NCBI GenBank assembly: GCA_026023565.1
Contig: JAPETS010000005.1
Coordinates: 806,001-870,000, forward strand
Direction of reading: 5' to 3'
DNA: 64,000 nucleotides
DNA from: Cirrosporium novae-zelandiae
Lineage: Eukaryota
Shown here: piece after piece, positions 1 through 18,876 of the stretch
Position numbering within the stretch: position 1 is the stretch's first letter
Layout of the letters: every line of letters begins with the position of its first letter
Notes under the pieces: generated by a model
Database searches by the model: none
Told to the model about the DNA's origin: nothing
The model's input: only the letters and a program-made list of their open reading frames with translations
Position numbers and translations under genes: made by a program

Positions 1-575
1 ATACAAAACTCTTATACTTCTCCACCTGAAGACAAAGTTCATCATTCTGCCATGAGACAAATAGAGAATCAGGATTGAATAAGGCCCATAACTGGGCCTA
101 TAGTAAAGTAATCAATAGGGCATGAGTGAAGGTTTGGAGCCGTTGGAGGCTGAACAACAAGAAAACCAAGGATGGAAGAGATTAGTTTGATCCTTCCGGA
201 ATCCTTCGGCCGACTTTGGTAGCAGACGCAGGAACTTGTCATGATTGCCAAACATTGTGGAGGATTGACGGCTGATTCAATGGGCGATGAATAGGTGATG
301 GAAAGAGGCTATGATTTCAATAAGTTGGATGGAGAGGTAAGGCAGATCTGGACAGGTTAACACAGCAGGACCTGATCTTAGCGTTCAGGACGGACGAAAA
401 GGCAATCTAAGCTTCAAAGTTAATTGGAATATTAATTCTTCATTAATTATTCATACTGGCGGAAAACTGTATCTAATAGAACCTTGACATTTCTATTCTG
501 ACTAGCTAATTATCTGTCCCATCAAAGGACACTTGACCACTGGTACAATATCTTGCAGAACGCCCACGCCAGCTC

Positions 576-1442
576 CTACAAGTACGAAAGGTCACATTCT
601 TCGCAGAGATAAAGGGCCCTCAAATCATTTCTCTTTTGTAAGCAGGCACCGCATTGTTCAACGCGGCCCGTTCTGGGCCAGGGGAGATTAAGAGGGTGAC
701 CATGGATTTGATCACAGATATCAAGAGCAAGCTGAGGTCTGCGTCTCAAAAGATCTCGGCCGTCGCTGAGCTTCAACCAAGAAGACATGAATTCTTTACT
801 GGTGGACTTTATGACATCGCGAAGACCGCGATCCGCATGTGGTGTCGAATCGTAGACCAGTTTGATTACACTGACTATGTAATCAGAGCACGTCTTGAAA
901 TAAGGTTGTTTCGAGGCGCTTTCGAGACTGTCTATGAATTTCTCTTTGCTAAGTTCCTTCAGACGCCAAATACGGTATTTACCCCCGAGTGCATACATGT
1001 GCGCGTCGACTAGAGGAGCTATTACCATTGACTTTTCATCGGTGGCACCTTCCATGTTAATGGATATCTCGGGTATATCCAGCTTGGATTCGTAGTTCAA
1101 AGTGTATAGGAATATGATCATCTGCTCGACAAACGGCAAAAGATCGTCGTCGAGAACTATTACTCCCTCCTCTATTGGGTTAGAGCAAGCTCCATTGAGA
1201 ATAGTAGATTGCGAGCACACAACAACTCGGTGAACCCTCCATTCAGTGCTTTTGCATCTGATGGTGGAATCACAGAAATGAGAGTCCTTGAAAAGCCTAA
1301 TTGTTGACCAGTGTTATATTAGCATTGACTATCATGATTATATTTGGGCGCATTTGAAAGCTCACTTGAAAATGCCTTTGAGGACGCTCTTATGGTGTTG
1401 GCGGACTATTGCTACCAGCTCCTTACTGATGAAAATTGGCAT
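576..1442 (-). CDS. BTB/POZ-domain protein (2 exons; intron about 1297-1365)
   Basis: ATG at 1442 and a GTGAG...TAG intron lead into RLFKDSHFCDSTIRCKSTEWRVHRVVVCSQS...LDDD...MIIFLYTLNY...MYALGGKYRI, the typical fungal BTB pattern. Joins ORF 576..1220. Confidence 0.85.
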
Positions 1443-1640
1443 TTTGTAACAGAGGGATAACCTTCGTCAAAAGAGCTTGAGCGTTAAGAGGATTCGATCA
1501 AGAAATAAGTGATAGTATACCTAGAGTCTTCGAAGAAAAGAAGGAAGATAAAAGAGGGAGATGCTGCGGCTATTTTTATTTGGAACATTTGAATACTAGA
1601 AGGGGCTCTGGAGAAAATCCGTTTAAGCAAGCACTTGTCT

Positions 1641-2478
1641 TTACGCTTTCCCAATCCATTCAACAACCCTCCTCCAAATCTCCACCCCATCGCTCTCCTT
1701 CTCCATCTTCTTCTTCAGTTCCTTCAATGCCCCTCCATCCATCCCCTCTGTATACTCGGACGCATTTTCTAAGATCATCTTTGCTAGCTCGGTCGTCATT
1801 TCAGGATGTCCTTGGAAGGTAAGGATCCGATTGTCGCTGCGAAGAAAGATCTGGTGATTTTCTGCGAGCGGTTGCATGTGAAGGGCGGGGACAGCAACAA
1901 TACGGCGGTGGAATTCATGCATGTTTAAGACGGGCTTGAGGCTTGAGGAGGTGGTAGTGATGGTGGTGAAGGGGAAGAAGTTTTGGCCGAGGGGAGTGAG
2001 AGGGATGGTTGTGACGCCGATCTAGGAAGCATTGAAGTTAATACAGTCTTTGAATGGGCTACAATATTCCTATCCATGCGTGCAAATATGTACTCACTTC
2101 CGGTCCCTCCTCCCCCATCATCTTTACCGTCCCTCCCAACGCCATATTCAGAGCCTGATGGCCCCAGCAAATGCCGATAATTTTGGTCTGGCCACCCTCC
2201 TCACTACACACCCTCCTTAAAAACTTTAGCATTTTTAGGACCCATGGGTTGTCTCCGTTGATGTCCGTTGTGCCCCCACTAAGGATGACAGCATCGTATT
2301 TGTCTGAAAGATCAGGGTAAGATTGTTTTTCAATAGGATCGAAGAATGTTACTTTAGCGGATGGGGATACGGCTTTGAGGATATTGGAGAAGGAGGTGAT
2401 GGTGTGGAGTTGGAGGGGGGAGGGGAAGGTGTTGATGAGGATGGCGATGTGGAGAGGCTTTTGGGAGATTGAGCCCAT
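1641..2478 (-). CDS. Class I glutamine amidotransferase-like protein (intron 2022-2097)
   Basis: Catalytic motifs GICWGHQ and FQGHPE. A GTGAGT...TAG intron joins ORFs 2059..2478 and 1641..1922 in frame via IGVTTIPLT. Confidence 0.9.
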
Positions 2479-2815
2479 GGTTATTATGGGGCGGGATGCT
2501 CTCGGTAGAATCTATGGAGGTTGAAGGTCGATTTTAGATGGCTTCCGTGTGAGTCTTTTATTTGGGTTAATAAAATCAATCATCTTTGTCGATTACCGTC
2601 CTTTTGTTTTGCTAGGAATAATCGCTGTAGTTTGATGAACGATCGATCGGAGTTAACCATCCCCCCCCTTATTACCTAGGTACTTAGATAACGATAAGAT
2701 TAAAAAGGCCGAATCAATATTCCGAACAACCAAACCCTAAGTTTTATGACTCCATCTAACAACATATTACCATCCATATAAAATCAGAAAGAATTCCCTT
2801 CATTGCTACATTTTC

Positions 2816-4677
2816 TCAAATGACTCCCCAGCTTCCCAAGGGATCAACCCCTCCGTTGTTCTGCCGTTCTCTTTGCAATCTATTAACTCGCTTGACCAAT
2901 GTGCCAACAGTGATAGGTCCAGTAATAGTACACAGTACAATTGCCCATATCACCACTAAGTAGGTTTTTGAATTACCTGATGACAAAGGATCGGAGGAAA
3001 ATATCCCAGTTGTCTCCGCCAGAGAAGCGATGAGGAACCCAATCTCACCCCGTGAGACCATGGCCGAACCTAGGATGGACGCTGGGTAGAGAGAACGTGG
3101 CTTTCCTATTATGGGACGGCGGATTTGTTGTGGGGTTGGCTGAACGTGCGAGATGGTGGATTGGCTGTGTTCGGGGGAACTTGAAACCTTTCTTGGATGC
3201 AATTCTCCAGCATTTACATCTTGCTGGGGTTCTTGCTTGGAGGGGCTTAAAGGAGCCTGCCATTTCTTAGGTAGCCAACAGCACCATTTTGGGAACCTTG
3301 TCACAATATTCAGGAATTTTTGAGCCGAGGGTAGGGAAACGGAGAACCGGATGAGCCAAAGTGCTGTCATGAGTTTTCCTAAATGCATCAAAATTGCATA
3401 GATAACACTCCTCCAAATTATATTCTTAGTGAACATCTTTGTAACTGGTATGGCAAAACCGATAGATACCTACGAGTGAGTCATCGTTAGCAGCTTCTTG
3501 GAGGGAGGATACTTAAGGTTAGGCGTAACATACAAAGAAGAAAGGTTTCAAGATCTTCGAGACAACAACGGAGTAATAGGTTTCGTAGGTTGATATTCCT
3601 GTTGAATTTCTTTGTATAGCTGTTTGTTGCTGTGTTGGGGGTATCGAGCTGGATGAATGACTGGATTCTCGATCATCTGCGCCCCTATTGCTGGTTTGTT
3701 AGTTATTCCTAGAATATGGGGAGGTCTCGTACTCGTCTATGGTAACACCAGGTTGATCGCTTGTAGAACTGTCACGTTTGCTAGAGACTAACAAATCCCA
3801 CCAACTGATAGATGCTCCAGCAAGGTAAGCAGCAAACAGACCCGAAGTACCTGCAAACGTAGCCCCGGAAACGAGTCCAAATAATATAGAAGTATGGACA
3901 AAGAAGGCACTGTACGTTTGTTTAAAGACCATATTTAGTATTCGATCTGGAATTCTGGTGTGCAATGGCATCAAAATAAATCGACAGACCAGAACCAATA
4001 CTATTACCAGAGCAAAAGATACCATGATTGGCTTGATAATAGTGACGGCTTTCAAAGCGGAAGCTGATTGTCCTAAATTAGATATCACTTGGACCATAAT
4101 GAGACCAACAACGTCGTCCATCATAGCTGCACTACTTAGAACCGTCCCGAGTCTCGTCTTTGTCAATCCAGTAGTCCCGAGGATAGTGAAAGTAGTCCCT
4201 AGACTCGTTGAACATAATGCAGCCCCAGCCGCAAATGATTGTAGAGTCGTCGCCCCAGTAAGAGCTCTGAGTGAAAATGAGAAGGCAATCGGAAGACTAA
4301 TGCCTGTTATTGCGACTGCAGTGGAGAGAATAGCATTTGCTTTCAAAGATATGAAGTCGGTGGACAGGCCTCCTATACGGCCAGTGTTAACATTGTCATA
4401 AGTAATATATGCATAAATCATTACCTTCATAAACAAGCAAAATTAGGCCAAGATAACCAAGCTGTACAATAACTTCTTCAGCAGTAGAGCTTAGCCATCT
4501 TGTACCAGGAATACCCCAAGCAACTCCAATCAATATTTCTCCAATTAGACCACAATAAATGAGTTTATCAAATACATGATTTATAATATTAAGGAGAAGA
4601 AGAAAAGAAGACTGAACAAGAATCGTTATTATATCCGGTTCGTGATAGGTTAAAGCTGCGTCAGTCGATTGGGACAT
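2816..4677 (-). CDS. Cation/H+ antiporter (Na+/H+ exchanger family, CPA2-like); in-frame TAA at 3699-3701 is either intronic or a nonsense lesion
   Basis: Motifs YHEP, LGYLGLILLVYEGGL, GAALCSTSLGTT, AAMMDDVVGL, KPFFF|VSIGFAIP, AMVSRGEIGFLIAS. Introns 4373-4424 and about 3470-3533. Confidence 0.85.
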
Positions 4678-5029
4678 TATAAACTGTCGTCTGCTTCTGG
4701 GATTTAGAGTCGGTCTTAAAGAATCGTAGAAAATGATGTCGTACAATAATATTTCCACTTAACCATAAATGGTAGTATGCTTACTATGAATAATGCACAA
4801 TAGACAAAGTCCTCTTAACATTATTTTCACTGGTATCAAATTACAAAATATACCGCAGCCGGTAATTATGAAATTGACTGATACAAACACTCGCGTGCTT
4901 TATCCCTATTGGGTAATTAATAATATGGGTGCCTTGGGCTGAAAATTGCTGGTGTCTGCGAAACGATGCTGTCGCCCACTCTCAATCTTTCAAAAAATTA
5001 AATTTCTATATGATTTACAATAAACTATT

Positions 5030-7172
5030 ATGTCACGACCTCATTCTACGCTCTCTCGAGACGACTCAGCCTCGGATAGATACTCTTTCGAGCTCTCAGT
5101 CAGATCATCTCAAATATCTAGATTGGAACCCATTCGCATAAAGCGCAGATTTGAAGATGCTGCTGAGCGTCTCCGAGGCCGTGGCAAACTAAAGGCACTA
5201 CCAGTGGGGGCTCTTCTGTCGAAATCATTTGAGTAATCAGTATGACTATCTACTGACGACTATTATCCCAGACATTGTCTGAATCTGTTCAAGCTCGTGC
5301 CAGCGAGCCTGGGACTTCCACAACTCATGAAAACAACCTGAATCAAGCGACTCCGCAAGGCTTACCTCGAAGAGAGCCGCAGGTAGTTGCAAATGGGCAT
5401 ACCCCGCTGCTGCCTGCTAGGACCGACGACCAATTCCGAAATGATGATTGTTCTGGTTTGAAAAAATGGTCTAAACACGCCCTGCGCCTAACTTGGATCG
5501 TCCTCTTTTCTAATTATGCAAATTTGCTGCTCCTTCTGATCCCATTTGCTTTCGTGGGGCGTGCACTTTGTTGGCCTAATGAAGCTGTTTTAATTTTGAA
5601 TGGTGTTATCATGTTACCCTTTACGCTGGTTCGTGTACACCCTGCTGACCACGTTGGCAATGGACCGAGTACTAAATTGTTGATAGATGGTCGCAATAGC
5701 TACCGAGCAATTAGGAACTAGACTTGGCTTAGGATTTGGTTAGTAGCTAAGATATATGTTTATACAGAGTACAGCTGACATTAAAGTTTCTTGGTAGCTG
5801 GCGTACTCAGTTACAGCTTTTCAAATGCAGGAACAATCATAGTATCTTGTGTTCTCCTTAACAGAGGCGAAACTCTTGTGGTCCAAACCTCCCTTCTAGG
5901 TGCCATCGTGTTTAATCTTTTGGCTATTATGAGTTGCCAATACGTGGCCGGTGGCATCGCATATAGTGAACAAGATTTTAACAGCACAGTAGCCAATGTC
6001 AATGGCTCTGTTCTACCCCTCTCGGCAAGTAGCATTACCCTTCCGGCCATACTTCGACAAGTTCAAGGCGAAGAAAGCGTCGTCGTTGTTAGCCGGCAAC
6101 TCGCTATATCTTCCTTAGTTATTTATGTAGCGCTTTTGTTTTTCCAGGTAAGTCGCAACAGTTATTAATTATATTATTGCACACAACCTATGTAGTGATT
6201 AATCTGACCTGCTCATCTTCAGTCTAAAACACATGCTTCTTTTTATGACCCAGAGGGCGCTTGGGATAGTATTATCGAAGAAAGAGAGTCAGAGCTCCGA
6301 ATGCTCTCACCCCCCCCTGCATTTATCTTGCTTATAGCTGCTACGGCCATGTTAACAGCTGCCACTGAATTTTTCGTCGATGCTCTAAATGACGCAACAG
6401 CACACCACTCCATCAGCCGAACATTTATTGGTTTCATTTTTCTACCACTAGTGAGCAACGCCATGTCATATATTACGGAAGTAAGTTTATATTCAGCATA
6501 ATAAATGACCCTGGAGGGTTGATCTGATCCGAACCAATACTCTCAAGGTCCGCGATGCTTGGAAAAACAAAATGGACAAGGCCTCTATCATGTCCATAGG
6601 CTGCTCGATCCAAATAGCCCTCTTTATCATACCTGTAACCGTACTGGTTGGATGGGGCATTGGCAAAGACATGACCTTATAGGATTTACTATTGATCTTA
6701 TCAAAAGGCTAATGATAAAACGAGTAAGCAACTGACGCTAACTCTACAGAAATTTCGACGTTTTTCTCAACGCCAGCGCATTCATCGCTATCCTCCTCCT
6801 CAACTCGGTTACCCAAGTATGCTTTCCCATTTCCCGGCCAAGTTGGATAAAAATTATTTACCTAGCCATTGAATCTACAAACATGAAAACTCCCTATGCT
6901 GATTTAAACTTCCACGGAATGGGAAATCGAATTTTCTTGAGGGATTACTCTTATTGCTATTTAGGAATAGCGTGAGTGAGGCCCCCGAACGACACGAAGT
7001 GCTTTAGTTCAGTTCGTCTATCGATATGTACGCCTTGTCCTACTGACTTTTAAGCAGAGTCGGAGCGTACTATTACCCTGCAGGCCCTGGGGACAGAGAA
7101 CGTGGCCGACATACCCCCATAAATATAATATACAATGAGCCTCACGACAGAAGAACTAAGATGAGATCATGA
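5030..7172 (+). pseudogene. Ca2+/H+ exchanger (CAX/Vcx1-like), multi-exon, probably non-functional
   Basis: Exons read NLLLLLIPFA, VVQTSLLGAIVFNLL, FFQ|SKTH, FIGFIFLPLVSNA, KNKMD..IGCSIQIALF, MTLNFD, GKSNFLEG. The expected donor at 6679 is AT and the expected acceptor at 6916-6917 is GG. Start and end are approximate. Confidence 0.75.
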
Positions 7173-7413
7173 TAAAAAATATGTTTCATGCAAAAATATT
7201 TTAATCATATGAAGTGTAAGTCTACGGGATCGCTCATATTTCTACATAGGGACATTTTTTTCCCCAAGGAGATCAGGGCTTATAATAAAGGTTAAACATA
7301 ACTCGAACAACAACAGGGCATTTCCTTCCCTAGAACACCTACCACTGTATAACCCCCTCCAACCTCTATCTATCATATCCCCTCCCATCCCCCAATCCAA
7401 TCTAATCCTCCTC

Positions 7414-7579
7414 CAGTGTTGTCGATAGACTGAACCAAATAGACGGTCTACCATAGACAGTCTATAGACCTTAGACCGACCAAACTAAGCTTTTGGATAG
7501 ACCAGACGGGCCTCGGATTTTGACAGACCGACCAGACCAAGAGGGTCGGTCTAGTCGGTCTAGTCTATTCACAACACTG
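7414..7579. mobile_element. MITE-like element with CAGTGTTGT terminal inverted repeats (hAT-like)
   Basis: Left end CAGTGTTGTcgATAGACT; right end reverse-complements to CAGTGTTGTgaATAGACT. Interior has repeated AGACCGACC/GGTCGGTCT motifs. No target-site duplication seen. Confidence 0.7.
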
Positions 7580-7708
7580 ACAACAGTTTCTTTCCGAATA
7601 TGTGTCAAAGTCTAAGTCTAAGCAGGATTTGCCCGTTAGGTGCCAAATAAACAAGGTCGTTAAAGGAACTTAATAATCCAGATACTATAAAACTAGCGAG
7701 TGCCCCCG

Positions 7709-9265
7709 CTAGTCTTTTGGCACAAAAGTAAATCTGGACTTCTCCCTCAGCTTCAGACCATACTTCATAAACAGAAGTGGAACTGGCAAAGCCAAGCACG
7801 ATATGCCGCCTAGGAGATTAGATGCCGGCGCAACCCCCAAGGTTTCAAACATTGGATGGGCGGCTATGGGGAGCGCACATGTAAGTACTGAACGGAGAAT
7901 GGTGCTCGCCGACACTGCGCTGGCAGTATAAAAGCTGTAGCTATCCACCAGATAATTGAGGCATTGTTGGAAGACAACGTTGAAACCAGCTCCAATGAAA
8001 CCTGTTGCTCTCTGGTCAGAAATATGTAACTAACCCTCTTGAGAAAATTTTTTACAAGGAACTTTTACCTGCTGCAACCACGGGTGATGCCCAAGGATAT
8101 TCGGGAGATGCTGTCCAACCAAACCAAAACAATCCACCCGAGAGCATGATCCCGCCAACTACTATGGGAGCTAGGCGGGCCTCAGGCACTGCCTTGCCAT
8201 TGTTCTTCCTCACAGCCGATTTATATCGTGGCTGGTTGGCAAGATTTATAAATGATGACAATTGCACGCCGACAAAAATTCCCAAGAAAGGCAAGGTTGA
8301 TCGGAACAAACTCTAGCCCCGGTGCTCCCTAAAAACGATCGGAAAGACTTCTAAGGTGAGATAAATGAGGCTGTAGGTAAAGGAGGCGTAGAGTGTAGTG
8401 CATGTGACCAATGGCTCGGTGATAAGCATGCTGTTATAACCCTCTTAGCAATTTTCTTCCAAGGAGTATAAAACGCAAACATGGTTCATCCTACTCACTG
8501 CAATGGACGGCTGAGATGTTTGGTGAGGGCGTTGCTCATATCTATCTTCTCTTTTTCATGTGGATGCCAGTATCGCGAATCGCCTGTGCTCTTGCGCATC
8601 TGTTGTGCCTTTCGTTTTAATAGGACTGGAGTATAGGTTTCCGGTAAACAGACCAAACAGAGAGCAAAAAGCGTAAATACAAAAATGGCTTCAATGTACG
8701 CCGTCCCTAAAGCCCTATCAGTCGATACAATGAAACAACAGGGAGTTTTCATAGCTAAAATCTTACAGCGCCATCCTAGATGAGGGTTTATCGTTAACGC
8801 AGAACCAAAGATGGGCCCAAGAGTTGGGCCTCCCGTAATACATATGGAAACAAATGTCATGGCGGTTTCTCGTGTCTCCGGCTCATAGATATCGCCCACG
8901 GCCGCAGGAACGTTACTTATGGGAGCAGAAGCAAAGATGCCACCAAGAAAACGCGTCAGGAAAACGCTTGTAGCATTCGTGCTCGCTGCCGTCCCAATGC
9001 TGAACAGACCCAGGATGAAGATAGCGGGCAGCATTCCCATTCTACGGCCATATACTTCACTTATTGGTGCCCAAATCATCGGACCGAACGCCCACCCTGT
9101 GAGAAGTTAGTACCGTCATGTCTATTGAATAGGACTTAATTTGACAAACCCAGAATGAACAGTTCCACCGTCAGAGATACGGTTTCCACACTCACATTCA
9201 CGTATTCCGCAAGAACTTTCTCGGCTGGGGGAGATGATCGAAGATCCTAGCGAGCCGGTCATGCA
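7709..9265 (-). pseudogene. MFS drug/polyamine:H+ antiporter (DHA1-like) pseudogene
   Basis: Motifs WAPISEVYGRR, RFLGGIFASAP, LPETYTPVLLKRKA, PEARLAP, YTASAVSA. In-frame TAG at 8313-8315 where homologues have Trp (RG*S), a +1 frameshift in a G5 run at about 9227-9231, and the N-terminus is missing. Confidence 0.85.
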
Positions 9266-10076
9266 AAGCAGACGTGAAAAGAGTTATAAGGTTGGGCGTT
9301 TGTTTAATATGAGCAAGTTGGGGATAGAAACTAGGGCCTAAGGCAGCTAGCAGCTCGAGGGAAACCATGAATTTGTATTGAATGCCCGAAGTTGTCTTTA
9401 TTTGTTTGTATAGATCCAGAATCCTAGGAAAGTTTATTCTATATAATTACAAAGGCTGCAAGGTTCAGACTAGCCTGAAAGGGATATGATGTTAATACCT
9501 CAGGCAGCGAGAAAAATCGAACAACTCTTTCATAGTACTGTATAGTTCTAAATATTCAAGTTAGAACACTTGGCAAGAATTAATTCTTAGGGTAGCCGCA
9601 AGTGTCGAGTATTCACTGGTGTTAACCCTATATTTTTAGGGCAATTAATATTGATTTTTTTTTTCTACACTACACTATACTACACTGACCCAAGAAAAAA
9701 AAATTAGTAGTGTCAGTATTGAAAAAAAAAAGTCACTACTTACTCAACACTACTACGGGCCATTCTACACACAGTGTGGTTTCTTAGACCCGTTTTGTGC
9801 GAGGACAACCTGGTAGTAACCGAGCATCCCTGCGTAGCGAGAATCCCCTGAGCATATAAGTACGAAAGGTAGGTAGACAATAATGAGTCGCAATTTGTGT
9901 AACAGCCGGCGCCCCGTTGAGAATATGAGTTGCCAGCGCGTGCGAATCGGTCCTCCCTCAGTTCTAGTTCAAGAAAGTAATACAAATGCCACTTTTGTCT
10001 AGCCAATTTAATATTTTGCTATCTTAGCCGATATCCAAACATCCCCTCGAAAAGATGCAGGCCAACGACTTCTTGT

Positions 10077-11090
10077 TTGACTTATGATCCGGAGCTTGCC
10101 CTACCAATAAGTGAACTCCATCCTAGGCCTACAAGCAGCATGAGGGAATTCATTACCGTAGTACGGAACGCCTATGCGGTTATCCCCACAGAAGACATTA
10201 CCGCCAATCTTCAACATCACGGAATCAATTGCCGAGATGAGACTATTGAAGTATCTGGAAATACTGTTGTCAAAATCGCGATTTTGTCCTCCTCAGCCTC
10301 AAACTCAGCCTCTTTACGCTGCGGATTAGTGTGGTATCACGGGGATGGTGGGGTCAGCGGTAACCGATTTGGAGGTCTTCGTTATGTTACGGACCTTATC
10401 CAGATCTTTGGCATTATCGTCATTTCTGTCGAATATAGGCTTGCACCAGAGCATCCTACCCCAGTTCCCCAGGACGACTGCTATGCGGCGCTCACTTGGG
10501 CCGCGAGGTCGATGTATGATTTGGGTATTGATCCAGAAAGGCTGATGGTTGGAGGCAGCTCCGCGGGAGCTGGCCTTGCCGCCAGCGTGGTACTTCGTGC
10601 CCGTGACGACGGTGGAATCAAGCTGTGCGGACAGTTGCTGATAAACCCCATGCTGGAAGATCGAAATGAGACGGTGCCAAGTTATCGGTGTATAGATGAA
10701 CGTATGTGGGGACGAGCTTCTAGCATTTGCGCATGAACTGCTCTGCTTGGGAATGGTAGTGGAAGTGCAGATGTAAGCCCGTACGTTGCGCCCGCCCGAG
10801 CGAAGGACTTGTCATCCTTGCCATCCCCCTTTATAACAGTGGGATCGGAGGAACCATTTCGAGATGAGGCTAGCATTCACGCTGAGCGGATTCGGGATTC
10901 GTTAGGGTCTGTCGAGATTAATATTTGGAATGGCGCGTATCATGCTTTTGAGAACCTCGCGTCGCAGGCAGAACTGTCCAAATTGGCAGTCAGGACCCGG
11001 AGATTGTGGATAGCTCAAACATTCGGATTGGAAAATCGTTTGAGGGACGATGACCAAACTATGATACAAGGTGGGGATCATCCCATGTAG
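10077..11090 (+). pseudogene. Alpha/beta hydrolase fold-3 (HSL-family esterase) with premature stop
   Basis: Motifs HGDG (HGGG variant), SVEYRLAPEHP, GSSAGAGLA, DVSPYVAPARAKDLSSLP, FRDE, GAYHAFE. In-frame TGA at 10734-10736 (A*TALLG). No in-frame ATG found nearby. Confidence 0.85.
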
Positions 11091-11252
11091 ATTCAATATC
11101 ATGGCTCGCAAGTAGATCGACAATTACTTTCTCTTAAACAAGTAGTCGGACAATTAATCTATCACAGCGCTTTAGATGAAAAAACGATTTGCATAATCTC
11201 AAATTCACAATTAACACCAGCTTTCGGCGACTAAACAACCATAAAATAAGAT

Positions 11253-11723
11253 GTCGGAGCAGCTGTTCTTCGATATGTCTCGGCCTCCCACACGATCCCA
11301 AGCATTCTCCTGCTGAAGAGGGCTGCCCACGAGGTCTATTCCCCTAGCGTCTTCGAACTGCCGAGCAGAAATGTTGACCCAGATGATCCTACCCTCAAGC
11401 ATGCTCTCGTTCGAGAGATGCAGGAAGAGACGGACCTAGAGATCAACGATATCGTCGCCGAATCAAAACCGATGATATTCACGACGGAGAAGGCGGTAGT
11501 CGATAATACTGGTCGAGAAATCCTTGTCTCCAAAAGCTGCATTCAGTTGAATTACGTCGTTTCGGTCTCGGACTCGGACGCTCATGTCAAGCTGAGTGCG
11601 GAGGAGCATTCAGAGAGTACCTGGGCGACGGAAGGAGAGTTGGATAGGCTGGACATCACGAGTGCAATGAGAACTATGATTCGAGAAGCGTTTGGGTGGG
11701 CTGTTACCCAACAACTGGGTTAG
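11253..11723 (+). pseudogene. NUDIX hydrolase, degenerate
   Basis: Reads VGAAVLR..ILLLKRAAHE..FELPSRNVD..ALVREMQEETDL..VKLSAEEHS. Nudix-box glycines are replaced (GG to SR, G to D) and the 5' frame is broken. Confidence 0.7.
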
Positions 11724-12189
11724 AGTGTTTGGGCAAAGTTTAGAGCACATGCATTTATGGAGGCTATCAGGTCATTAGATTGACAAAGTTGGCGGTATGG
11801 AAAGTTCAATGACTGCAATTGAACCTAGACACGTCTAATACTCTTGGTTTCTTTCGAATCTATGCTTTGCTTATGTCTCACCCTGTCAATCCTTGCCAGA
11901 CCTGCGATTCCGGACAGGATCTCTTGATGAGATATATCATATCTTCAATGATTCTGCTCAACGTTAGCGCTGCATGGAAACGCCAACAGTAGATGATTGT
12001 TAAGAACCTCTTTCTGTAAATAGGACGAGATGGGAAAAGAGTAGAGTCATGGAGATTTAAACGTCTCAAAGCCAATTAACATAGCCCGCTGCTGCCATTA
12101 TTATTTAAAGTTACAAAGAATATCGCTTTATTCTATCATCCTACTGATCTTCTGGCGGAGATACGGGAATCCACTTATGATATGTCTCT

Positions 12190-12670
12190 AATATGCAATA
12201 GTCGAATTTCGACCGTGATGGTCCCCATTCAGCCAGGTCATCTATGATTTCTTTTTGTTAAACTGCAAACATCTTCAATGTATCATTGGCGGAAGACTTA
12301 CACTCATTATGCCCCCAAAAGGAGCAAGCATCGAAAAAAATAATACGATGTGTTGCCGAATCCAGAGCAAAGTTTCCAGACCATAAATCTCCATGATTCA
12401 GACACGGCTTCAGCTTTCGACTCTGATTTTGCAAAGGCCCTAACAAACTGGGGATGACAGACTTAAAGAGGGAATCGCAGAGACCAGTGATCTCGCTGCT
12501 TGTTCCGTTGACGCTTTGCTCAATATCAAAGGAGCGTTGTAGAGCATGAGCAAAGAAGTTTTCCCATGAATCTGTCCATGAATTGTCTTGCCGAAGTGTA
12601 CCATGATAGGTTGGAGCTTGGAAGCCAAATTTTCCATTCGGTGATTCGCGATTCTGGTGAAGCCGGGCTT
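12190..12670 (-). pseudogene. Fructosamine/ketosamine-3-kinase fragment
   Basis: Reads SPNGKFGFQAPTYHG..QDNSWTDSWENFF and KPCLNHGDLWSGN..FDACSFWGHNE in different frames. N-terminal half absent; limits approximate. Confidence 0.8.
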
Positions 12671-12793
12671 AAAGCAGCGGGCTCTTTACAGAAGAGCAGT
12701 TGTAGCCGAGACCTGTTTCCACGGTTCAGTCGTCACTTTCTCCTGGACGCCTGCCTCTCAAGTAAAACATTTATTAAAACGCTTGTAAACTAA

Positions 12794-15700
12794 GTAAATT
12801 ACTTTATTACTCACACTACCAGAGATTCTAATTATAAAAACATTGTTAAGGTATAAAAAATTCGTGTGTAGTAGAGTAAGGTCAAGTTTAAAACATAATT
12901 AATAAACCCCTACAAAAGGTCTCCTGCATATGTATACAGGTATAAATCGGAAATGGCCGAAATTTAGTATTAGGGGGGCTATCAGTCTAGTAATGTCAGT
13001 TTGTGTTGAGCCTTTCGTGATGTACCTATATACTAGGGGATTCTTGCCACGCAGGGATGTCGGGTATTCAGTCAAATTCATAAACATGAAAGAGTTCTAC
13101 GCCTCCATATTTTGTTCGCTCTTGAAAAGCGTGTGCTATATAGTACTCCTTCCGCTTCTCCCACGTGTTTTCCCCGTACGGAAAGCCTTTCCACTTCACA
13201 AGGAACCAAGTTGTTTTGCCTTGTTTCCACTTGGCAAGCAGCGATTCAGCCTCCCATATTCCTCCCTTGGCGTCAATTGCAGCCGGCTGATCTCCCACTC
13301 CTTGGCTGCCACGAAGCTGCTGTGTCACCGTGCTTTCTATATGCCCTGGCCTATGTGTCGGTATGGTTTCGAGGGCATCCTCAACCGAGTCGGTGGTTGC
13401 TGGTGGACTTGGTGTGGAAGAAGGAAGAGCATCTTGAAGCCCCGGATTAATCAACTTCATCGGAACACTGGACAGATTTGACGGAGGAATATTAGGGCTA
13501 GACAGAATCCAGTCCTCCTGAGACTCAATAGGAGAAGAGATAGCATCCGCGATCGCGTCAAAGTTCCAAGGTTCAGAATCACCAAAGAGGTCGACGGTGG
13601 CTACTTCCAATGAAATTGTCCAGGGGAGTGACAATTCTCTCCAGTCTAAGGAACTGCTTTGAGAATGTCGTCTGACAGAGATGAGAGCGAAGTATCCGTA
13701 TTGTAACAGTCATCATGATTGTCCCAGACGCTACCAACAGGGGTACTGCGATGTGATGAGGAACCGCTAGACACTGCTACTATCTCAACAACGTCCGCTG
13801 GGCCTGGATCAAAATTCGTTGCCAAGATATTCACAAACGTGTGACCAAGAGGTTCTTTGGAGCGACCCTCAGGGGTTGATTTCCGATCACCCGGTGCTTT
13901 GGAGTCTTCATCTTCCAGCTTTTCTTGGAATCGACGTCGTTTCGTTGTAGCGGCACCCGACGTTTCGGCTTGTTCATCTTCGCTCTCTTCCCGCTGACGT
14001 TGGCGCTTCTTCCCCGCATCGGACTTATAAGTGCTGTGAATGTCTCCGATGTGGTTCCATAAGTCTGATTCCGAATGAAGCACCGCAGCGCATAACAAAT
14101 GCGGGCATGGAATAGAGTCCTTGCTATCTAGACTCTTGACGTAATCTGGGGTGCATACAGAGTTGTGCCTTTGCCAGCTGGTTCGATCCGGGAACTGTTT
14201 CATCTGCAGGGCCGCTGGCAATCATTTTTTCCCGAGACATCCGCTATAATATCCGGCGCAAGCAATAGCACGGCGAAAGATGGCAGGGTCGCACTGGAAA
14301 GGCACGTCGATGTTGTCGATGTGGTTTTGGTAGTGGGCTTCCTAATCCATCTCACTAGTTATCCACCTACTGCACCGGAAGCAAAACTCGGCAAAGCCAG
14401 ATGACTTCTCATGGTAGGCTTTGGAGCACCGGTATATATGCTCCCACCTGTCTTTGACGTCGATGCTAATGCGATCTGTTAGCAGAAACGGCAATATGAG
14501 ATGGGAGTTATCCTTACTCTTGAATATCCTCGCCGCAAGTCGATACTGGACAGTGGCCTCCAACAAGCCGTAGCACTTCCTGGTACGCAACATGGGGATT
14601 GTTTGTGCGGAGAGCAATGAGATCTCGGAAAGCGGATATACCCTCAGGGCTCCGCAGCGGGACGGCGGGCGGTAAAATACGCGCAAGGCGATCGCGCTCA
14701 GGAACTATGTGATGGGTAACACGGTCAAAGTAACTGCGCTGCTATTCGTCTTGGTCATATACCTCACACTGGGTGGTGTGTACTCGTTGAATCCTGCGGT
14801 AGTTCGCCAACTCTTCGTCAATCAGCTTTTGGCGCTAATCATAGATATAGCGCCGCTGAGCCCTGAACTCTTGGCGCCCCTTCTCCGCGATAGCAGCCGT
14901 GATTTGGACGGAGAGTTTGTCAATCTGCTCACCAAGATCGGTAAAGTCCCGGCGCCGTCTCATCTCATCCAGGCACTTTGCTGGAAGTGAGTGCCGGAGA
15001 TCCGAGTTCCTCCTCATAGACGCAGAGCGGAAGTCTTTTGTGAGATCCCGCTGCACCGTCCACATTATTCATGTCATCCAAGTAGTGGCCGACAAGAGTC
15101 TTTGAGTTTCTGTGTGCGGCGAACTTCATGACCTGCCCCAGCGAATAGTCGCCGTCTGTTGCCAATTAGCCTGCTGTACCATAAACTTTGTTTGGACTGA
15201 GGACCCTTACCGTCTACCTTGATAAGCGCTTCGCGGCGGGGGGCATGAAGGCCCATCCCTCCCGTAAAACCAGACCTTTTAGCACGGGCTGGCCCGTAGA
15301 CACACTTACAGGAACCACTGAATCATGGACCTCTAGAGGAATGGTGAGGTTGAGCGTGCGACAGCTTCAGTGATATGCTTCATGTCTTCCATATTGCGTA
15401 ATTCCGATCCTGGATATTTCCTTTCATACCTAAGACGTATCAGTGCTTACTATTTTAGACTGGACTTTGTGGTGTTGACAACGTACCCTTCCCAAAAACC
15501 CCACATCGCGTCGTACCGTGGTTGACTGGTTTTTTTATTAAATTTTCTGTGAACGGGATTGCTATCGATCCCGGACCTATCCTTAGAGAGCCCATCCCTC
15601 AAGGCTTCCTCTATCTACTCGTCTGGATTCAGTCCTCTCCAACATCCTTTTGCTCGCTCTGTGCTCATGGCTTGCAGAGGTGTGTATGTGCGGATGTGGA

Positions 15701-16076
15701 TATCTGGAGTGGAACGAGATAAGAAGGTCTTGCTGGAGAAATGGGAGAGAGAGGAGAGAAGAGGGAGAAAATATAAGTGGAAATATATAAGGAGATATGT
15801 GAAAAGATGGATGAAAAGAAGGGAGAGAAAAGAGGTAAAGGTAAGAGGGGAACGGTCATTTATAGAGTACGAAGCCCTAGGCAAAACGCAGAGGACAGCG
15901 TAAAACACTTTGAAGTAAGATGCAGAAGAAGGTCCCATGCATGAAGGCAGGCAGGCACGCATGATAACTGTCTGGAAATAAGTGGATAGTGGGAACATAT
16001 TTGGGACCCCAGGCTAAGGAAGGGGGGCTTTTCGGGCCCCTCGTTAAAAGTTGACGATGTCTGGTGAGATGGGTAA
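12794..16076 (-). mobile_element. Derelict Starship-like element (captain only, about 3.3 kb); boundaries tentative
   Basis: Contains the DUF3435-type gene relic. Minus-strand TTAC at 16076-16073 and 12797-12794; imperfect inverted repeat TTAC-N7-ACCAGA at 12807-12826 and 16057-16076. Confidence 0.6.
13146..15668 (-). pseudogene. DUF3435 tyrosine recombinase (Starship captain / 'FluG-domain'-type) with C-terminal Cys/His fingers and chromodomain; stops, frameshifts and internal deletions
   Basis: Recombinase segment GLHAPRREALIKVD, QVMKFAAHRNSKTLVGHYLDDMNNVDGAA, RDLTKDFRSASMRRN; FAEFCFRCSRW; CPHLLC..LWNHIGDIH; chromo motif IWEAESLLAKWK..FLVKWKGFP..NTWE. TAG at 15615-15617. Confidence 0.8.
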
Positions 16077-16174
16077 GCAGACCTGAGCAGACTTGAGCCG
16101 AAGCTGAGCAAAGGCGGCGCGAGATCACGTGAGCTTGGTGGTTGGAGGCGTCGAGATTCCAGTCAAGAAACAAT

Positions 16175-18565
16175 TTATCCAATACACCACTCAAACTTAT
16201 TGAGCATCTTCGTATCTGCGGTGACGATGATGTTATTACCTTTTTCGCCGAGAAGAATTTGAGATTTTTTATTGGCAGCAGCAGCATATTGTCCCGTCTT
16301 AAAAACTCGAATTATGTACCTTGCATATATCATAATTCTGCTTTCGTTATCACCAGCAACAGCGGACATATCTTCTTTTCGGTATATAGAGACGATTAAC
16401 CCAGCAGTGGCAGCGGCGAAGGTATCATCCTCGTTGTTTGAATCATCCAATATTATCGCGAGATGGTTGTCGGCAACAAGTCTCGAGTAGGAATTATGAC
16501 CATAACAATCCTGCTCCTCCACTGCTTTCCAAACCTCTATGGTGATCTCATTTTCGTCCGCTATGTGAAACTCTTTTCCCCAAAGCCCAGTTGTTTCAGC
16601 TCCACGAATGCCAGATAACAACTTTGCTGGAAGAGAGCAGATCAGACCGCTGGTATTATAATATGATCCATCCTTTGTTATCCAAGTTTGTAGAAATGGG
16701 TGACAGGGCTCCCGCCGGTTCATTCCCTTTGATAATGTCATTAATGATTCCGGGGCCCATCGGTATCCATCTTCTTGTAATTTCGGCTCCGAGGTGAAGA
16801 GAATTGCTGTAGAAACTCGCATACGGAGATCCGCAAGGACGTTGAGAAAGGCCTTCATTCGTTCGTTGGCGGAAGATGCGGCGACAATTGTAGTCTGATC
16901 TAATCGACAAATGGATGCAATGCATAGCGTTTCATCTGCTCGCTTTGTTGTTTGCCGGTACTGGATAGCCGTCAGGATTTGTAATGGCATTTGATATTCG
17001 ACGTCTGGGAATGAATTATCATTGCCACTTAGTTGCATTCCTTTCTCGGTGTTCTCAAAATTAGGCCTCAATGGGATGTGGTTGAATAAATATTCTATAA
17101 TATCACCAAGTATACTCTGGCGGAATAGCCGAACTTCCTCGCGGTTTTTCGTGGGTATATTTACTGTCCCTTCAGCAAATTGAAAGAATAGTCGATCACG
17201 TCCGACAACTCCTTCCTCAAGGGTCCACAGCCTTTGCATCCATCCGCTAAAACAAATGCGCATCAGCCATTCTTCCTCACTGCATTCGCGTGTGGATTTT
17301 TCTAGCTCTGCATCGAGAACAAGCACTTTATTTGCTTCTTCATACATCTTTCCGAGTTTTCTCAGCGCTAGTTTGCGTCCTTTCGGCTTCAGAGGGACAC
17401 AAAGTGTATCAATCCAGATGGGTATATCGGCAATTCTTTCCTCCTTGAACAAAGCAACAGCAAGATTCTTCAATCGTAGCAACTGACATTGTGGAAGGGA
17501 GTTTGTGCGAGCGTTCCCAAGTCCGTCAGACCACACATGTGATATAGCAACATAAGGGCCAGTGTCTGTTACAACAATGTAGAAGCTGCCCGCTTCATTT
17601 TCACCTACTGATATGCGAGGGATTCCGCCATTCTCGAGAATGGAAACAACATTCTCAGCATCAATTTCAAGATGCACACAATCACATCCACTAATGACAT
17701 GTTTCGAGACATAACGAGATTCATCAATTCTTTTCTGGGTACATTCATCTTCTAAGCAAGTTGAGTGGCTCTTTTTAACATCAGGTCGAGAAAGGGTACT
17801 AGCAAAATAAACCACAGGAGCAGCGAACCCGAACTTGGGACCTAGAGCTTTAACATCTCTTGGGCACCAGTTGGCCCTAAGCATTTTTACATAGTCCAGG
17901 ATTGGGGCACGTGGAGTAACAAAACCGACTTCCATATAATCAAAAGGGAACTTGGTCCGAGGAATCTTGAACCTCCATTTCCTAAGTTGCCGTAAAATAT
18001 TATTTAATTCAGCCATACTGCTTGATTGACCCCATATGGCATTAGCACATGCGTACAGTGCGTGAACCAGAACACGAGTAAAACTGATGACTTCTGGATT
18101 TAGAAAACCCCCCAGAGCAGATCCAGAAGGGCATTCCAGGAGATCTCTAACTTGCATTAAGCACTGCGTGGCTGCGTGAAGCTTTCTAGGATACTGACTC
18201 CGGTCCTTGACTACCTCACAAACCGCCCAATCTTCAAGGTAACGGTCAAACAAAATCATAGTAAATAATCTTTGATCACCCTCTTTCCGGATAAAATCTC
18301 CCTGTCTGACTTGGATCCCTGAAAGACTAATAACTTCACTAAGAGTACCGAAAAACATCCATGCTTGTAGAAAAGCTGTTGCAACATCTTGATCAAACTG
18401 CAAGTGATCTGTACGCACCATCACTATAGTAGTCCCTTGGCTTTCCCATTTTATTTCCCAACCTTTGCGAGTTGGAAAATCAAAGAAGCCTTGGTTGTCA
18501 TAGTCTGTTTCAAAACATATGCATGGACATTCGAGAGGATGCTGAAAGTGGGCATTATTATCCAT
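16175..18565 (-). CDS. HET-domain (heterokaryon incompatibility) protein, 796 aa, intronless
   Basis: HET blocks PYVAISHVWSDGLGN, IWIDTLCVP, YEEANKVLVLD, WMQRLWTLEEG; N-terminal FLQAWMFFG. Confidence 0.92.
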   Translation of the reverse strand: MDNNAHFQHPLECPCICFETDYDNQGFFDFPTRKGWEIKWESQGTTIVMVRTDHLQFDQDVATAFLQAWMFFGTLSEVISLSGIQVRQGDFIRKEGDQRLFTMILFDRYLEDWAVCEVVKDRSQYPRKLHAATQCLMQVRDLLECPSGSALGGFLNPEVISFTRVLVHALYACANAIWGQSSSMAELNNILRQLRKWRFKIPRTKFPFDYMEVGFVTPRAPILDYVKMLRANWCPRDVKALGPKFGFAAPVVYFASTLSRPDVKKSHSTCLEDECTQKRIDESRYVSKHVISGCDCVHLEIDAENVVSILENGGIPRISVGENEAGSFYIVVTDTGPYVAISHVWSDGLGNARTNSLPQCQLLRLKNLAVALFKEERIADIPIWIDTLCVPLKPKGRKLALRKLGKMYEEANKVLVLDAELEKSTRECSEEEWLMRICFSGWMQRLWTLEEGVVGRDRLFFQFAEGTVNIPTKNREEVRLFRQSILGDIIEYLFNHIPLRPNFENTEKGMQLSGNDNSFPDVEYQMPLQILTAIQYRQTTKRADETLCIASICRLDQTTIVAASSANERMKAFLNVLADLRMRVSTAILFTSEPKLQEDGYRWAPESLMTLSKGMNRREPCHPFLQTWITKDGSYYNTSGLICSLPAKLLSGIRGAETTGLWGKEFHIADENEITIEVWKAVEEQDCYGHNSYSRLVADNHLAIILDDSNNEDDTFAAATAGLIVSIYRKEDMSAVAGDNESRIMIYARYIIRVFKTGQYAAAANKKSQILLGEKGNNIIVTADTKMLNKFEWCIG

Positions 18566-18876
18566 TATCTTTAGTTAGTAGCACCAGCCGTATTGATGAA
18601 GCAGTAGAACGTGAAGCGGAAGCCAACTATAACGGCCACATTATATAACTAAAGCAATCAAGAATTCGGGATCCATAGAAGCAAATTATTTCACTTAAAA
18701 TTTCCAAGCCACCAAGTTGGTGACATCTAACTAGAAGTTATTCACACTTGGATCCAGAAAACCCAAAGGAATTTAGGTGAACAAATGCCCAAAATACCTA
18801 AAAGTCAAACATACGACGTGTAGTCTATAAGAAAGCTGTAGAATTATAGAGGACAAGGTACTAACTACCTAGGTAT

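Follow-up and report, generated by a model that had tools for sequence, protein, structure and literature searches.

The minus strand of a 64,000-nucleotide stretch of Cirrosporium novae-zelandiae DNA (assembly GCA_026023565.1, contig JAPETS010000005.1, positions 806,001 to 870,000; hereafter the window, numbered from its first letter) carries the remains of a captain gene, i.e., a gene for the DUF3435-type tyrosine recombinase of Starship transposons. Based on comparisons with related copies, we conclude with a probability of approximately 85% that the DNA between 16172 and approximately 13090 is the remnant of a small Starship-type transposon that has decayed and been truncated at its 3' end, that this copy is immobile, and that the TTAC motifs previously proposed to mark its ends are not real ends. 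An initial annotation of this DNA had described a complete mini-Starship that had kept both ends. Its Starship-type origin, 5' captain on the minus strand and small, deleted state were borne out. Its completeness was not, as homology with the related copies ends inside the captain gene and the 3' module of those copies is absent from positions 1-13150 of the window. Mobilization of the copy in trans, which had also been suggested, is not expected because both ends have not been kept.

Results

Related copies place the 5' terminus at 16172

A single scan of metagenome contigs with alignment A1 yielded 15 related loci, amongst which three independent copies with unrelated flanks could be distinguished: L001 (the same copy as L002), L006 (the same as L005) and L012 (seen on three contigs i.e., L003, L004 and L012). 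These three were 90-92% identical to one another over approximately 4.15 kb and unrelated outside it, with 77-84% identity to the window. The 5' terminus TGTTTCYTGACYGGAATCTCG, located at 16172 in the window, was common to all four copies. The boundary 21-mer lies at position 1 of L001, 7956 of L006 and 7945 of L012, and in each case the alignment with the window runs inward from there. DNA outside the 21-mer was unrelated in all copies, the L001 contig ending exactly at the 21-mer. In the window, the 5' terminal non-coding region (15669-16172, minus strand) begins with TGTTTCTTGACTGGAATCTCG at 16172, so that the captain start codon at 15668 sits 504 bp inside a terminus defined by four copies.

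The 5' end had previously been assigned to 16076. This position lies 96 bp inside the element, and the three related copies run through it to 16172. The TTAC at 16076, which had been taken for a terminal repeat, is TCAC in all three relatives (GCTCACC there vs GCTTACC in the window). It belongs to a subterminal tandem array of 10-nt units resembling TGCTCAGGTC (16071-16110, minus strand), the last unit of which carries the TTAC at 16076-16073. Analysis with TRF at period 10 gave 3.4 copies in the window (16076-16110) and 5.6 copies in L012 (8008-8065), and in the alignment the window array was 21 nt short relative to its relatives. The idea of an insertion at TTAC-N7-A also fell away: the terminus reads TGTTTC in 4/4 copies, the TTAC is internal, and the recombinase has His, not Tyr, at its HxxR box. 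A check on sibling copies, which the initial annotation had itself set beforehand as decisive for its boundaries, revealed that the related copies have different ones.

The terminal 21-mer was not kept, at up to four mismatches, in L007, a copy at 76% identity. As regards a possible RNA-gene target, Rfam gave no matches in 11500-17500 and ARAGORN no tRNAs in the window, making a 5S or tRNA target unlikely. Short matches in sequencing runs X2 and X3 (37-54 nt, 80-90% identity, approximately 16028-16130) were also considered but not used; by a rough estimate, they are at chance level for an 80% threshold in approximately 1 Gb.

The captain is identified through its homologues

The captain pseudogene occupies 13090-15668 on the minus strand, as delimited by tblastn and blastn, and comprises the DUF3435-type tyrosine recombinase, a zinc-finger region and a first chromodomain. 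A read-through translation of 185 residues with X at the stops (P0001) matched 163 proteins at E≤1e-3 in a library of 1.8 billion proteins. When 12 of these 163 homologues were scanned with Pfam, six exhibited PF11917 above the cut-off (26.8-66.3 bits vs 25.8) and three exhibited Chromo above the cut-off. Both PF11917 and Chromo are carried by P0012 (956 aa; PF11917 46.4 bits) and P0022 (1034 aa). By tblastn, P0012 aligned colinearly with the window, its residues 16-79 matching 15614-15348, 293-355 matching 15289-15046, 363-538 matching 15050-14520, 540-683 matching 14464-14033 (44% identity) and 847-867 matching 13220-13158, with the frame order -3, -1, -2, -3, -1, -3. In blastn comparisons, the captain region was 84% identical to L001 over 2177 nt. 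The DUF3435 nature of the window gene is therefore deduced from homologues that carry PF11917 and not from a direct match: the gene is colinear with PF11917 proteins and 84% identical at the nucleotide level to the copies in its relatives. The captain gene of the initial annotation is thus upheld, via these homologues, as to its type, its strand and its position on the 5' side; it is a pseudogene, however, and a PF11917 search of its pieces came back empty. The only Pfam domain matched directly in the gene pieces was Chromo (33.4 bits, cut-off 25.1).

Amongst the retained parts is recombinase box II (15046-15289, minus strand), with GLHAPRRE (HxxR) in frame -1 and AAHRNSKTLVGHY, which contains the catalytic Tyr, in frame -2. 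The window thus retains both GLHAPRRE, its HxxR box, and LVGHY from the tyrosine region; the His-to-Tyr spacing is 36 residues in P0012. Across the window, L001, L012 and L006, the HxxR box reads either GLHAPRRE or GLHAARRE. A Cys/His-rich zinc-finger region follows at 14033-14464 (minus strand), corresponding to P0012 540-683 and aligning to its counterpart in L001, L012 and L006. The first chromodomain lies at 13147-13289 (minus strand; PF00385, 33.4 bits) and covers model positions 1-37 of 53. Minor variant contigs were observed over 13240-13357, within the chromodomain region, in sequencing run X1 (depth 2-6 vs approximately 330); they probably reflect a rare variant or errors in the reads.

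The window copy has decayed

Five in-frame stops, starting at 15617 (15615-15617, minus strand), 14837, 14744, 14344 and 14224, interrupt the captain, together with several frameshifts. Relatives have Q or W at all five of these places. In MAFFT alignments with the three relatives, the window was short of 21, 23, 14, 25, 97, 767, 26, 3 and 16 nt internally. The two largest gaps enclose an island at 15284-15352 (minus strand), with 97 nt gone after 15352 and 767 nt gone after 15284 (MAFFT, blastn); a further 26 nt are gone after 15052 in the alignment with L001, L012 and L006. The 97- and 767-nt gaps take out homologue residues of approximately 80-106 and 124-292, respectively, and the lost part includes the box I arginine exon, which in L012 reads ...HCYTSARL.... 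With the catalytic core and the 3' end lost, the copy would neither act nor be mobilized.

The deletions were independently supported by a contig from sequencing run X3 (1003 nt, depth 118, labelled as a different organism) that does not have the 97-nt gap. This contig was approximately 89% identical to window 15304-15759, carried approximately 92 extra nt at the site of the 97-nt gap (approximately 15350), and had unlike sequence where the 767-nt gap begins. It is also a closer relative of the 5' part of the captain than any metagenome locus.

At 2,691 alignment columns the three relatives agreed, and the window matched them at 2,345 (87.1%). At such columns, C>T and G>A changes numbered 167, vs 90 T>C and A>G changes. 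The GC-to-AT changes displayed no CpA preference (CA 50, CG 44, CT 38, CC 35), and we therefore make no claim of repeat-induced point mutation. Of three sequencing runs, one contained this stretch and may be its source. The captain region was single copy in that run: 28 of the 30 bins had a depth of 345-361, and no second contig reached 80% identity.

Homology ends inside the first chromodomain

On the 3' side, the six loci that extend this far (L001, L003-L006 and L012; blastn) all lost nucleotide homology at 13147, within the first chromodomain, beyond which weak protein similarity may extend to approximately 13090. The relatives, like P0012, P0022, P0019 and P0008, go on to a second chromodomain and a stop codon; the window is without the final 141-200 nt or so. 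The sequence that follows is an AT-rich tail (12700-13089, minus strand, GC 0.34) that holds the proposed 3' terminal inverted repeat (TIR; 12807-12826) and TTAC (12794-12797). This tail had no blastn match to any of the metagenome loci and no Pfam match in three frames, and its local alignment with the 3' module common to L001 and L012 scored at shuffle level. That module was likewise not found anywhere in 1-13150. The TIR and direct repeat proposed as the 3' end of the element fall outside the homologous part, in unrelated AT-rich DNA.

We then assessed the TTAC and TIR strings in their own right. As quoted previously, TTACCCATCTCACCAGACAT is present at 16076-16057 on the minus strand and TTACTCACACTACCAGAGAT at 12807-12826 on the plus strand, the two matching as inverted sequences at 14/20 positions. 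A direct TTAC is found at 12797-12794 on the minus strand and continues as TTAGTTTA, such that 12797-12786 reads TTACTTAGTTTA. The captain ATG (15668-15666) sits 408 bp inside 16076, in keeping with the approximately 400 bp claimed. Chance levels were estimated for inverted 20-mer matches of ≥14/20 pairing a 509-bp zone ahead of the ATG with a 368-bp zone following the gene. Shuffling 200 times yielded such matches in 87.5% of cases, with an average of 5.9 pairs vs 3 in the real sequence, and when any common 4-mer was allowed as an anchor, 60% of 200 shuffles achieved a 14/20 inverted match. As statistics, the strings are weak apart from the case in which TTAC is fixed as the anchor. Judged from the alignments, both are coincidences, one internal to the element and the other in unrelated AT-rich DNA. 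No direct or inverted repeats of ≥40 nt were found within the 64-kb window.

Flanking genes

At the 5' boundary, the element starts 2 nt past the native stop (16177-16175) of an intact HET-domain gene (16175-18574, minus strand; PF06985). This gene is complete: the alignment of P0154 (796 aa) with P0155 (792 aa) covers both over their full length, and both finish WCIG. At lower coordinates, a 5'-truncated fructosamine-kinase fragment occupies 12144-12668 (minus strand), with PF03881 matched at 75.5 bits over model positions 112-223 of 288 in 12258-12668. A stop stands at its upstream edge, its extension to 12144 follows gene model P0153, and the N-terminal part of the kinase (Pfam model 1-111) was not found in 12600-13100, the stretch tested. 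Excision of the element as initially proposed would restore no sensible site, because the kinase starts at model position 112. The public gene model P0153 (697 aa; PF03881 and PF00385) matches window exons exactly from 15256 to 12144 on the minus strand, and by splicing combines captain fragments, the chromodomain and the kinase fragment in a single protein. We regard it as a probable annotation artefact.

Relatives of the window copy suggest a family of small elements

After the captain, the DNA of L001 and L012 was unrelated save for one block of approximately 300-480 bp. This common 3' block ends ...GAGTCAGAG at the same point in both (L001 10207, L012 14627), after which divergence resumes. 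With the 5' terminus and this block as limits, the L012 element would span approximately 6.7 kb (7945-14627), with a DUF7587 open reading frame (ORF; 12325-12909) between captain and 3' block. The L001 element would span approximately 10.2 kb (1-10207). Its sole recognizable cargo, lying between the captain stop and the 3' block, consists of a MerB-like gene (4763-5428, minus strand) and a MerA-like gene (6113-7477, plus strand), which scored 126 and 149 bits with Pfam and had NCBIfam MerB and TIGR02053 MerA as their best hits, both below the strict cut-offs. Cargo between captain and 3' end was thus absent from the window and would be present in L001 and L012.

Direct repeats or TIRs at both ends were found neither for the window copy nor for the family. 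As for family TIRs or subterminal inverted repeats, the inverted 7-9-mers that the first 200 nt at the 5' end have in common with the 3' module were at shuffle level. No direct repeat of ≥3 nt could be read at the L012 junctions, and the 3' flanks of L001 and L012 contained no TTAC. Within the 3' block, tandem repeats with units of approximately 13 nt resembling GGGTGCAAAGACA were observed at L001:9850-9960 (about six units) and L012:14406-14452. Either these repeats or the 5' 10-nt array could represent a candidate recombinase binding site.

We consider the odds even that the window copy belongs, as a dead member, to a natural family of mini-Starships. Such a family would comprise elements of approximately 6.7 kb (L012) and 10.2 kb (L001) with a common 5' terminus, a recombinase with a zinc finger and two chromodomains, and a short 3' module, L001 being a compact mercury-resistance cassette with MerA- and MerB-like genes. 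Ferric reductases count among the auxiliary gene families of Starships, and a ferric-reductase-like ORF (FAD_binding_8 / NAD_binding_6) was observed at L001:12059-12610, approximately 1.9 kb past the inferred 3' end; the L001 element might for this reason exceed its inferred size. We found no paper that mentions both Starship and alkylmercury lyase, although merA and merB do appear as cargo of the Hephaestus family in the account of PMC10104507.

Discussion

Alternative explanations

Three other explanations of the window sequence were weighed against that of a truncated remnant. If, as initially annotated, the element were a complete, cargo-less mini-Starship of 3.3 kb, with TTAC at 16076 and 12807/12797, an asymmetric TIR, a TTAC(N7)A site and mobilization in trans, then the strings present would be its ends, and PMC10104507 does describe trans action of the HhpA recombinase on a mini-element and TTAC(N7)A as the Hephaestus target. 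The best point for this explanation is the TTAC-anchored 14/20 match, which is nominally rare: with TTAC fixed in advance, it was attained in just 1.05% of 2000 shuffles. Homology with three copies nevertheless crosses 16076 to reach 16172, the TTAC being TCAC in 3/3, and the 3' strings lie past the end of homology, in unrelated DNA. Furthermore, the window has His where PMC10104507 describes Tyr in HhpA, its terminus is TGTTTC, and joining the proposed flanks still leaves the kinase without its first 111 Pfam model positions. We consider this explanation scarcely credible. A functional host gene, i.e., a spliced chromodomain-kinase fusion such as P0153, is very improbable. The 697-aa model does match exons exactly from 15256 to 12144 and unites PF03881 with PF00385, but it must splice around every stop and frameshift, begins in the middle of box II, and links the truncated chromodomain with a kinase missing the first 111 Pfam model positions.

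It is also unlikely that the captain heads a larger Starship, the cargo of which would lie at lower coordinates (kinase fragment, NUDIX, hydrolase, transporters), with the 3' end further left or outside the window. Such an arrangement would be consistent with a captain that stands at the 5' edge and reads toward lower coordinates, and with post-captain DNA that differs fully between relatives, as in the published haplotypes described in PMC12506042; moreover, the window spans just 13 kb on the cargo side. Against it, the captain is cut in the chromodomain region and the adjoining kinase is cut too, which has the look of a deletion junction, while the homology amongst the relatives reaches the captain stop codon and approximately 35 nt beyond. 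In addition, the 3' module could not be traced in 1-13150, and no Starship auxiliary families were found among the 10 ORFs below 12700 scanned with Pfam.

Several observations count against a truncated Starship-type remnant, in addition to the TTAC-anchored match. PF11917 gave no direct match with either the eight ORF pieces or the eight read-through translations of the window gene, and single exons of the relatives, matching PF11917 model positions 107-163 and 224-392, stayed under the cut-off with 13.7-19.3 bits. The 5' boundary is fixed only to within a few bases, and GGRC just outside it is common to L006 and L012 but not to the window. On the 3' side, the 390-bp AT-rich tail is not accounted for, and a 3' end of different sequence may exist at lower coordinates. 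The 3' block was not seen within 5.5 kb in L006, which leaves the module in two of three copies, and the L001/L012 module could be an internal conserved block and not a true terminus.

Origin and significance of the remnant

Under our preferred explanation of a truncated remnant, the ancestral element would have consisted of the 5' terminus TGTTTCYTGACYGGAATCTCG, the 10-nt array and a leader of approximately 500 bp, followed by a captain with a zinc finger and two chromodomains. By analogy with Hephaestus, the captain would join the two ends into a circle, which would then reinsert, with site choice probably steered by the zinc finger and the chromodomains. In the window copy, the catalytic core (box I Arg, Lys region) was lost through internal deletions, and the five stops and several frameshifts break up the rest of the captain. 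The second chromodomain onward, any cargo and the 3' end are gone too, most likely through one deletion that removed the 5' half of the kinase gene as well.

The window copy itself is an ordinary relic, one more decayed captain amongst thousands known, and is of less interest than its small cargo-bearing relatives. It does carry a methodological caution. TTAC- and TIR-like strings near captains easily arise by chance, one of those in the window being a single base off every relative, and it is safer to take boundaries from multiple copies or empty sites. The relatives suggest that Starship-type elements of 7-10 kb with adaptive cargo, e.g., for mercury detoxification, may exist in a size class that is filtered out by current pipelines. 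The starfish catalogue, as described in PMC11162782, drops predictions of <15 kb and has a smallest element of 15,020 bp; if the limits proposed here are true, L001 and L012 would be smaller than any element in it. Cargo-mobilizing Starships would then reach ordinary transposon sizes and would have been systematically missed.

Comparison with known systems

In captain layout, the window gene resembles Kirc, the captain of Enterprise in Podospora, for which a recombinase, a zinc-finger region and a chromodomain are described (Vogan et al., 2021; PMC8092012). Both have this arrangement, with a C-terminal chromodomain and His in HxxR. The same source reports degraded short remnants and solitary end fragments of Enterprise, among them a remnant of 5.5 kb from a P. 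comata strain. Enterprise differs in being flanked by RGGTAG and in its size of 39-247 kb, vs approximately 7-10 kb apparent for the window's family (PMC8092012). RGGTAG/CTACCY was absent from 15667-16250 and 12600-13100, where we found only a loose TGGTAG at 12820, so that RGGTAG does not occur at both ends of the remnant.

Hephaestus (Urquhart et al., 2023; PMC10104507) is likewise captain-led and recombinase-dependent; its leader measures a few hundred bp, and the recombinase can be supplied in trans; its ends recombine into a circle (as presented in bioRxiv 10.64898/2026.09.21.753150). It has a TTAC direct repeat and a TTAC(N7)A target, HhpA acts in trans on a mini-element, and merA and merB, of which relative L001 carries MerA- and MerB-like counterparts, figure amongst the cargo of its family (PMC10104507). 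In HhpA, however, Tyr replaces the HxxR His, a difference that according to PMC10104507 splits the captain tree at a deep node, whereas the window recombinase retains His, and the terminus is TGTTTC in 4/4 copies and not TTAC. With neither a terminal TTAC or TTAC(N7)A nor a Tyr in place of the HxxR His, the Hephaestus target cannot be justified for the window element, which is no insertion of the Hephaestus family.

A parallel to L001 and L012 is offered by the Sanctuary haplotypes, which are described as sharing only their edges (PMC12506042). L001 and L012 also share their first 4 kb or so (5' end and captain) and a short 3' block, and are unrelated between them. Sanctuary haplotypes are 47-200 kb long with a 6-bp direct repeat (PMC12506042), in contrast to the inferred 6.7 and 10.2 kb here, without a readable direct repeat. 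Finally, the window copy can be likened to solo captains and Cryptons, in which a lone DUF3435 gene stands without a recognizable full element. Such genes are numerous, with 10,212 solo DUF3435 genes reported vs 559 elements with boundaries (Gluck-Thaler and Vogan, 2024; PMC11162782). By comparison with the solo captains described there, the family of the window copy stands apart in having a readable 5' terminus and a candidate 3' module, both read from several copies.

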